Below, in pieces: positions 16,631-19,600 of a stretch of 64,000 nt of DNA (position 1 is the stretch's first letter; each line of letters opens with the position of its first letter). Source of the stretch: Escherichia coli (GTDB taxonomy: Bacteria > Pseudomonadota > Gammaproteobacteria > Enterobacterales > Enterobacteriaceae). The position numbers are program-made. Location: NCBI RefSeq assembly GCF_030013595.1, contig NZ_CP122768.1; one strand, written 5' to 3'.

Positions 16631-19600
16631 TGATGGGCGGTATTCTGAAACGGCGATTGTCGTGAGAACAAAATGGTTGCACCAGAATACAGATATAAAA
16701 AAACCGACATGACAGTCGGTTTTTTTATTTTTTCCGCCCAAGACTTGGTGGTTCCGGGCAGAAATGAAACAGTCCTCATCTAGCAAGTGAATTATAAGTC
16801 AGGATGCCTACATATTCAAACAGCTATGTTGGCGATACAATCCCGACGCTAGTAGTGATACTGCCTCAAGGGATTACCGCAGTGCGGAAAAGTACTTTTA
16901 AGTCCTGGTCAGGATACAGGTGGTGCTGATTCTGGTGCTCTAATTTGGAGAGAGGCAGTCCTCATCTAGCACATGAAGAAAATCATAGTTACAGGCAACG
17001 TAAGGGTAAGCTGTGATTGTCTTTCTCCCTTAAGGGAGCAACGGATGAAAACTTTTCTCGATAAAGTTCTCATCGTTCTTAAGGCGCTAATCGCGCTGCT
17101 GGAACTGATCCGTCAGTTTATTGAATAACTGAGGAAACGTAGCTAAGGCCGAAGGTTTACCACCTTCGGCCTTTAAAAAAACCGACATGACAGTTGGTTT
17201 CATATTTATTGCCAAAATGCACACTGTTCATGCCAGATGCGGCGTAAACGCCTTATCCGGCCTACACAATCTTGCAAAATCAATATATTGCACGCTCTTC
17301 GTAGGCCTGATAAGCGTAGCGCATCAGGCAATCTAACACCTGTCATCACCCCGCAAACTGCCTGAACAGCGCCTTACCCTTAACCAGTCGCGCGCCCAGC
17401 CAGCCGCCGCAAAGCGACAGCAGCAGCGCACCGCTGCACGGCAGAACAATCCACAATCGCCAGTCTGGCTCCCACGGAAAATCAAACACTTTCGCCTGCA
17501 ACACTGCCAGCGCCGTTTCCGCACCAATTGCGGCCACCAGGCCAGAAACAAACCCGAGCATGGCGAACTCACACCACAACGTGGTACGCAGCAGTTTTTT
17601 CCCCGCACCGAGTGTGCGCCACACCACCAGCTCCTGATGACGCTGACGCATTCCCACCTGCACCTGTGCCAGCAACAGCAACATACCGCAGGCGGTGACC
17701 AGCACCACCATCACCTCCAGCGCCCGACTTACCTGCTCCAGCACCTGACCGACCTGTTTTAAAATCGCGCCAATGTCTAACAGGCTAATGGTAGGGAACT
17801 GGCGGTTGAGTTGCGTCAACATGCCGTTGCCATTCTCCCAGCGGAAACTGGTAAGCCAGCTCTGCGGTTGCCCGTCTAATGCCCCTTCCGGGAAAATAAA
17901 ATAGAAATTAGGCCGCAGACTTTCCCAGTCCACTTTGCGCAGGCTGGTCACTTTAGCGCGGAACTCCTGGGTATCGCCCATAAAGGTGACTGTATCGCCG
18001 AGGCCAACGTTTAAGCGTTTCGCCAGCCCCTCTTCCATCGACACTTCATCGGCTTTTGGCGGCCAGTTACCGGCGACAATCGGATTATGATCGGGCCGCG
18101 TATTTTGCCAGGTAAGATTAAGTTCGCGATTGAGCGCCTCATCTTCATTGCCTTCTGTCGGCTTGCCGTTAATCGCCGTCAGTCTCGCCCGCACCACCGG
18201 ATAAAATGATTCCGGGACTATCTGATGTTCCGCGAGGAACGCTTTTAGCGGTGCTACCTGTTCTGTGGCGATGTTGATTAAAAAGTAGTTCGGGCTTTCT
18301 GGCGGTAGCTGCTGTTGCCAGCGGTCGAGCAGATCGCCACGCAATACCAGCAACAGCGCCAGCAGCATAAAGGAGAGCGAAAATGCCGAAAGCTGGCTTA
18401 ACGTTGACCACGGCTGACGTAACAGGCGGCTAACCGCCAGGCGCAGAGGCAGCGATTTCAGCGTCATGCGGCGAAGTACATTCAGCAGCATGCTGCCACC
18501 CATTAATCCGGCGAGCAGCACCACAACCACCACACTGACAATCGGCAGATAAAACTTCAGCGGCCAGACGTTCGCTACCACATCATTACGTAATACGCGT
18601 AAAGGCTGCGTTGCCAGCAACAAGCGGTATGGTCGTAGCCCCACCAGCAGCGAGATAACCGTCATGGTGCCCAGCGCCCATAGCCACGGCCAGAGGCTGG
18701 CTGGCGGTAGTGCAGCAGGCAGAACGGGCTTGAGCAGCACCATCAACACGTTTTCGAACAACAGGCCTATCGCCCCGCCGGTAACGGCTGAAAGCGCCAG
18801 CACCATCAACCACTGACCGACGATTAGCTTACGCAGTTGCGCTCGCCCTGCCCCCAGCGTTTTGAGGATCGCCACCAGATCGTAGCGACTGCGACAGTAA
18901 TGATTCATCGCCACCGCCACCGCTGCCACTGCCAGCAGCAAGGTCAGAAGCGCCGAAAGCAGCAGGAACTGTTGCGAGCGTTCCATCGAGCGCCCCAGCG
19001 CGCCTTCGTCCTGTTCCAGACCGTACCAGCGTTGTTCGGGTTTAAGCTGGGGTAACAACCATTTCTCATAGCCGTCGAGCTGGTTCTCGTTGCCGCCGAA
19101 TTTATAGCGCCAGGTGACCCGACTTCCCGGCTGCACGGCTCCGGTTTTATCGACATCCGCCAGATTCATCATCAGACGCGGAGCCATCTGGAAGGGGTTA
19201 AAACCGGAATCCGGTTCCTGAATCACTTCTCCGGCAATCCGCAAGGTGGCATCACCCACGTCGATGGTGTCGCCTGTTTTCAGGTTAAGCAGTGCCATCA
19301 GGCGTGGGGCCAGCAATACGCTGCCCGCCTGCGGTTTCAGGCCAGGGGGATTAGTTTGCAGATCGCCATACATCGGGTAGATATCATCCACCGCTTTGAC
19401 GTTCGCCAGCTGCGGTGTGTCGCCTGCAAATGTCATGGTGGCGAAAGTCAGCTGCTTGCCGACTTTCAGGCCGCGCTTTTGCGCTTCCTCCAGCCACGCT
19501 TGCGGCACTTCGCGCGAACTGCGCAACGCCCGATCGCCCGCCATAAACTCCCGGCTTTGCTGGCTTAAGCCCTTCTCCATGCGATCGCTGATATTGCCCA

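Follow-up and report, generated by a model that had tools for sequence, protein, structure and literature searches.

The 64,000-nt stretch of Escherichia coli DNA analysed here (contig NZ_CP122768.1 of assembly GCF_030013595.1, hereafter the window) carries a small putative toxin-antitoxin locus related to dinQ-agrB of E. coli K-12 between the genes mnmH and ybbP. The intergenic interval extends from the mnmH stop codon at 16631-16633 to position 17346, where ybbP, a minus-strand gene, has its 3' end. On the plus strand it holds an open reading frame (ORF) of 27 codons plus stop at 17045-17128 (ATG at 17045, TAA at 17126-17128), preceded by the Shine-Dalgarno (SD) sequence AAGGGAG at 17032-17038 with a 6-nt spacer to the ATG. 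Upstream of this ORF lies an AgrB-type small RNA (sRNA) gene, which is divergent from the toxin gene and does not overlap it. A preliminary description of this DNA had noticed the short ORF with its strong ribosome-binding site and had placed a DinQ-like module at 16740-17205; the ORF is as described, and these limits cover the toxin and both copies of a repeat treated below, but they leave out the sRNA terminator at 16695-16728.

The peptide encoded by the 27-codon ORF, MKTFLDKVLIVLKALIALLELIRQFIE, scored 40.9 bits against the NCBIfam model NF041472 (toxin_DinQ, cut-off 30). The profile search thus bears out the likeness to DinQ, which had been estimated beforehand at about 15 of 18 core positions; compared with K-12 DinQ as taken from NC_000913 (MIDKAIIVLGALIALLELIRFLLQLLN), the window peptide is identical at 15 of the 18 (cores DKVLIVLKALIALLELIR and DKAIIVLGALIALLELIR). 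The DqlB model, NF041473, was failed with 24.5 bits against a cut-off of 35. Differences from K-12 DinQ include a lysine where the K-12 peptide has Gly10, an ATG three codons further upstream and a C terminus three codons shorter. As 27 residues are too short for a query, protein homologues were retrieved with a 51-residue form of the product, and the family PF28061 (DinQ) was found precomputed on homologues of the window peptide. A Pfam-A scan of the 51-residue form itself gave no match, the Pfam set used apparently being without PF28061. The window peptide belongs to a subfamily with the C-terminus ...ALLELIRQFI(D/E), members of which were found in integrative conjugative elements of Salmonella and Enterobacter, on a Klebsiella plasmid and in Serratia chromosomes. 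This is probably the dqlA class of Kristiansen 2016, which is defined by the peptide sequences in Fig. 3B of that work. A literature search for 'dqlA' returned unrelated papers only, and a full-text search for the peptide sequence gave no match.

The resemblance to dinQ extends well beyond the peptide. The K-12 agrA-dinQ unit can be aligned over its full length to about 0.5 kb of the window, 16690-17185, with about 68% nucleotide identity over the whole unit. The same stretch also aligns with eight other loci, among them modules from integrative conjugative elements of Salmonella and Enterobacter, a Klebsiella plasmid, chromosomes of the Serratia group and a metagenome. In seven of these eight an AgrB match above the gathering score occupies the same relative place. 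The remaining locus (L014, from Enterobacter sp. BIGb0383) has a toxin core and leader at 75% identity around 2100-2500 and no AgrB match above the gathering score, and its antitoxin may be divergent or missing. In the family alignment an ATG or GTG stands at the start position of the 27-residue peptide in seven dql-type loci, the K-12 dinQ start lying 9 nt further downstream, and the loci differ from the window toxin by synonymous changes in 5-9 of the 27 codons. Some close relatives of the window peptide lie inside conjugative elements, between RAQPRD/DUF3262-type and DtrJ-like/TraG genes (L006, L007 and L010, from Salmonella and E. hormaechei), and one in K. aerogenes (L011) adjoins TraM and TraY; these settings are consistent with an addiction role on mobile DNA.

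The predicted antitoxin gene, of about 89 nt, reads on the minus strand from 16783 to 16695 and is a full-length match to Rfam RF02891 (53.6 bits, gathering score 40). The same match is present in E. coli HS, in Escherichia sp. E1V33 and in a 108-bp deletion allele described below. The sRNA probably starts at 16783. A promoter TTGAAT-17 nt-TATAAT (16791-16819, minus strand), which agrees with the consensus at 10 of 12 positions, has its -10 hexamer ending 7 nt before the 5' end defined by Rfam. The predicted fold of the sRNA consists of a mid hairpin and a terminator. The latter (16695-16728) is a perfect 14-bp hairpin between A and T runs, its sequence is kept in all family loci, and it begins 62 nt past the mnmH stop codon; from the flanking A/T runs and its place after mnmH we suggest that it can act in both directions. 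Esr41, an sRNA of enterohaemorrhagic E. coli, was considered as the identity of the sRNA and set aside, as it is encoded on SpLE1/OI-43 and O157 Sakai has rhsD at the mnmH-ybbP site. Rfam matches to STnc370, OrzO-P, RNAI and others near the terminator are far below their thresholds and arise from the hairpin.

For the toxin gene the transcript can be predicted by alignment to K-12 dinQ. The putative -10 hexamer, TACAAT at 16836-16841, aligns with the -10 sequences TATGAT, TATAAT or TATCAT of eight family loci (TATGAT in K-12), and G16848, the predicted +1, aligns with the published +1 of K-12 dinQ (G1), which we placed at L002:1483 by counting back from positions given in PMC5066626. A start at about 16863-16870 gave inconsistent folds and was abandoned for 16848 from the family alignment. 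The resulting 5' untranslated region (UTR), 16848-17044, would be 197 nt long and is homologous to the 194-nt K-12 dinQ leader. Downstream, a hairpin with a 12-bp stem and a short U tract at 17145-17173 (plus strand) forms the presumed mRNA terminator, and a homologous hairpin is found in every family locus. The 6 bp 16814-16819 would serve both promoters, as the -35 hexamer of the sRNA gene on the minus strand and as the presumed weak -35 of the toxin gene on the plus strand; some 65 bp separate the two start sites. The promoters may compete to the advantage of the antitoxin, and since the sRNA promoter is much nearer to consensus we would expect the sRNA to be in excess over the toxin mRNA.

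The two genes are tied together by a direct repeat, the 16-mer CAGTCCTCATCTAGCA, whose exact copies at 16770-16785 and 16956-16971 stand 186 bp apart. These are its only matches in the window with up to two mismatches allowed, none being expected from shuffles. From the end of the second copy to the ATG at 17045 there are 73 nt, close to the 75 nt given in the preliminary description, and the repeat becomes longer than 16 nt if G-U pairs and bulges are allowed. As the first copy falls within the RF02891 match, it represents the 5' end of the antisense RNA gene. The earlier proposal of a repeat-encoded sRNA pairing with the toxin leader, in the manner of agrB, therefore holds at the level of complementarity: the first 14 nt of the sRNA are perfectly complementary to the leader copy, and over sRNA nt 1-27 and leader 16943-16969 we count 18 Watson-Crick and 5 G-U pairs with 4 mismatches (23 of 27 positions paired). 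The target site as a whole, 16943-16971 on the plus strand, includes the second repeat copy and the segment corresponding to dinQ element 2. The duplex prediction that had been suggested as a check gave -39.3 kcal/mol for sRNA nt 1-30, against -20.7 ± 2.8 kcal/mol for shuffled sRNA.

The two pairing partners also co-vary. Among eight distinct family loci 95.2% of the cells in the sRNA/target alignment are paired, compared with 80.9% in column shuffles, and none of 500 shuffles reached 95.2%; both sides change in 16 of the 27 pairs, and register-shifted controls were paired at 37-45%. In an all-against-all duplex matrix, with AgrB taken as the K-12 partner, the strongest duplex on every target was formed by its own sRNA or by that of a near-identical sister locus, except for L008, which paired better with the sRNA of its sister locus L009. 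In the 14-nt pairing block each partner carries 4 differences from its K-12 dinQ-agrAB counterpart. With the window leader the module's own sRNA reached -54.7 kcal/mol, K-12 AgrA -43.0 and AgrB -38.9. On the dinQ leader the window sRNA (-48.6 kcal/mol) does not surpass AgrA (-50.0), an RNA known to give no protection (PMC3567139). It seems from these energies that cross-protection of the window module by AgrA or AgrB would be weak.

We further folded the predicted leader and compared it with the architecture of the dinQ leader, which was established by SHAPE (selective 2'-hydroxyl acylation analysed by primer extension) and mutagenesis (PMC5066626). In the minimum-free-energy fold of 16848-17060 the 5' arm of a predicted lock stem, 16848-16867, equivalent to dinQ stem S1 / element 1, pairs with 16952-16970 in helices of 5, 4 and 8 bp and covers the sRNA site. 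Further downstream, 17015-17038 comprises the counterpart of element 3 and an SD hairpin CUCCC-UUAA-GGGAG (17025-17029 with 17034-17038). When the first 44 nt or so were removed in silico, a 14-bp duplex between 16947-16960 and 17015-17028 (element 2:3) replaced both the lock stem and the SD hairpin, and when the sRNA site was blocked the SD hairpin re-formed. With transcript ends placed as above, the predicted folds match most of the experimentally supported dinQ switch.

The module is widespread and strikingly uniform. The segment with the sRNA gene and leader was found in 1326 of 5426 complete E. coli genomes (about 24%), always on the chromosome, and it is at least 99% identical in 1320 of the 1326 carriers. 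Each sampled carrier genome has two matching places, and E. coli HS has both the window copy and the canonical dinQ between gor and arsR, for which reason we regard the window copy as a true paralogue. The preliminary description had noted that the module sits where K-12 has rhsD; indeed, in K-12 and O157 Sakai rhsD lies between ybbP and mnmH with no trace of the module, which probably explains the lack of experimental data. Escherichia sp. E1V33 (L016) has the same allS-mnmH-module-ybbP synteny, and its module differs at only 2 of 526 positions. Across 16650-17400 the two genomes show 1-3 differences per 250 nt, compared with 6-24 (about 4%) in the flanking allS, mnmH and ybbP; one other bin, 13650-13899, shows none. 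The low divergence suggests strong constraint or local recent recombination.

Taken together, we consider it very probable that a chromosomal type I toxin-antitoxin module of the DinQ/AgrB family lies between mnmH and ybbP, as a second, dinQ-like copy beside the canonical gor-arsR dinQ in the same genomes. By this interpretation a strong minus-strand promoter would yield an AgrB-like RNA of about 89 nt, and a weaker divergent promoter, its -35 overlapping that of the sRNA, an mRNA of about 330 nt for a hydrophobic and presumably toxic peptide of 27 residues. The full-length mRNA is predicted to be locked, with its 5' end paired to the sRNA target region and the SD shut in a hairpin. Trimming of the 5' end would allow the target region to pair with the anti-SD segment, dissolving the SD hairpin. 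Binding of the sRNA 5' end to the target region, over about 27 nt, would then return the anti-SD to the SD, and the sRNA-target duplex may invite cleavage by ribonuclease III, by analogy with AgrB.

Some observations weigh against this interpretation. The -35 of the toxin promoter is poor and the promoter was missed by a consensus scan. The activation step was not cleanly reproduced, as the predicted fold of the 5'-truncated RNA still has the SD paired, now with 16936-16941. Gene conversion between the two direct-repeat copies could partly explain the co-variation. Finally, about 190 of the carriers lack the toxin start and target site, which indicates that the toxin is dispensable.

The existing annotation offers two different readings. 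RefSeq names the gene at this very site "dinQ: damage-inducible type I toxin DinQ", as a coding sequence of 51 residues from the Prokaryotic Genome Annotation Pipeline (PGAP; WP_001308457.1, window 16973-17128, L001 3334-3489), while the antitoxin sRNA is unannotated in all 1326 carriers. That the product is this 51-residue protein and not the 27-residue peptide seems to us extremely unlikely: the frame is indeed open from 16973, the start used by RefSeq, but no SD precedes it, the upstream region is conserved as RNA structure, and the other family loci either have no ATG at the matching upstream place or have one whose short ORF stops before the toxin, whereas the conserved ATG/GTG start, with an SD, is that at 17045 and K-12 DinQ was shown experimentally to be the 27-residue form (PMC3567139). 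The N-terminal extension of 24 residues is thus probably a start-site error. The product name would further make the module dinQ proper, damage-inducible and repressed by LexA, and the DinQ equivalog model is passed by the peptide, as said; the canonical dinQ is nevertheless separately present at gor-arsR in E. coli HS, and the LexA operators are not to be found in the window copy. The window and most other family loci have no counterpart in the alignment to the K-12 segment of about 30 nt that carries them, and no CTGT-N8-ACAG site with at most one mismatch exists in the module. A LexA matrix built from 21 boxes, with the dinQ site held out, gave 23.0 (held-out) and 14.1 for the K-12 dinQ operators, at most 7.9 for the window and at most 9.5 for the other dinQ-like loci, the minimum among training sites being 15.0. 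An operator overlapping the promoter, by which canonical dinQ is recognised, is thus missing from the window copy, and as the operator segment, the consensus site and the matrix score are all wanting, SOS control is unsupported. Transcription is probably not SOS-controlled, and we find it very unlikely that this is the damage-inducible dinQ.

It might also be argued that the locus no longer functions and is the decaying remnant of a toxin-antitoxin system. The module is wholly missing from K-12 and O157, and while 1326 genomes have the sRNA and leader, only 1135 have the 108-bp segment 16957-17064, which spans the target site, the SD and the start codon plus six further codons. E. coli IMT16316 (L005) has lost this segment in a clean deletion of 108 bp bounded by AGTCCTCATC and AGTTCTCATC, which form an imperfect repeat, and the sRNA gene and promoter are left intact as an orphan antitoxin. 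On the other hand, promoters, SD, ORF and both terminators are intact in the window, the near-identity across 1320 genomes and the preserved sRNA-target complementarity speak for maintenance, and against another Escherichia species the neighbouring genes are five to ten times as diverged as the module. We therefore judge decay to be unlikely, and retain the DinQ/AgrB-type module as the explanation.

In its overall plan the window module agrees with K-12 dinQ-agrAB (PMC3567139, PMC5066626): the peptide family, the AgrB-family sRNA and the divergent, non-overlapping layout are the same, the sRNA 5' end is complementary to the middle of a leader of about 195 nt for which a 5' lock, an anti-SD and an SD hairpin are predicted, and the terminators are of the same types. 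Unlike K-12 dinQ at gor-arsR, it lies between mnmH and ybbP, has one sRNA gene instead of two and lacks LexA operators. In having a dinQ-like toxin with a single agrB-type sRNA it resembles the dinQ-like (dql) systems, which occur on chromosomes and mobile elements. Kristiansen 2016 (PMC5066626) describes dql genes, 14 in number and with the classes dqlA and dqlB, from both chromosomes and plasmids, "also together with dinQ". The plasmid dqlB-agrB addiction modules of pOXA-48 and pOXA-484 were validated in 2025 by toxicity and by base-pair-dependent sRNA rescue with compensatory mutations (PMC12365149, PMC12317039); the window copy differs from them in being chromosomal, at a fixed site and with a peptide below the DqlB cut-off. 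With zorO-orzO, tisB-istR-1 and shoB-ohsC it shares a divergent trans-encoded sRNA, a long structured 5' UTR in need of processing for translation and a small membrane peptide, but no sequence kinship (Rfam OrzO-P, 25.3 bits against a gathering score of 60).

The feature is thus real and the reading of it as a DinQ/AgrB-type module essentially right, but it is already known: both gene families and their mechanism have been described in the literature, and RefSeq includes the toxin. Its weight for discovery is therefore small, and it has modest worth for annotation: the name "damage-inducible" and the 51-residue start are probably wrong for the window copy. Carriers have two DinQ-type toxins with apparently non-interchangeable antitoxins, which bears on dinQ/agrB phenotypes outside K-12. 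We can only speculate, and with more doubt than confidence, that an SOS-independent paralogue of DinQ, served by an orthogonal antitoxin RNA of its own, is being held here at one fixed place in the chromosome by unusually strong constraint, its toxin start having been lost in about one in seven carriers, in at least one of them by a microhomology deletion that leaves an intact orphan AgrB-like sRNA. If this were true, the purpose of chromosomal type I modules could be studied here in a natural setting, as could the question of whether antitoxin RNAs left as orphans, K-12 AgrA being one example, take on other targets.

Two further kinds of repeats were seen around the module. A 40-nt direct repeat, 16696-16735 and 17174-17213 (83% identity), brackets it; the second copy, which Escherichia sp. 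E1V33 has as well, is a degenerate version of the sRNA terminator region. It may serve as the minus-strand terminator of ybbP, or it may be what is left of a second unit that once stood in tandem. An empty site of the kind that recombination between these copies would leave gave no single-piece match among the complete E. coli genomes. Between the module and ybbP lie two palindromic units of the repetitive extragenic palindromic (REP) type, 17226-17308, where Rfam naRNA4 and ES036 give sub-threshold matches; at the same place in E. coli IMT16316, ES036 passes its threshold.

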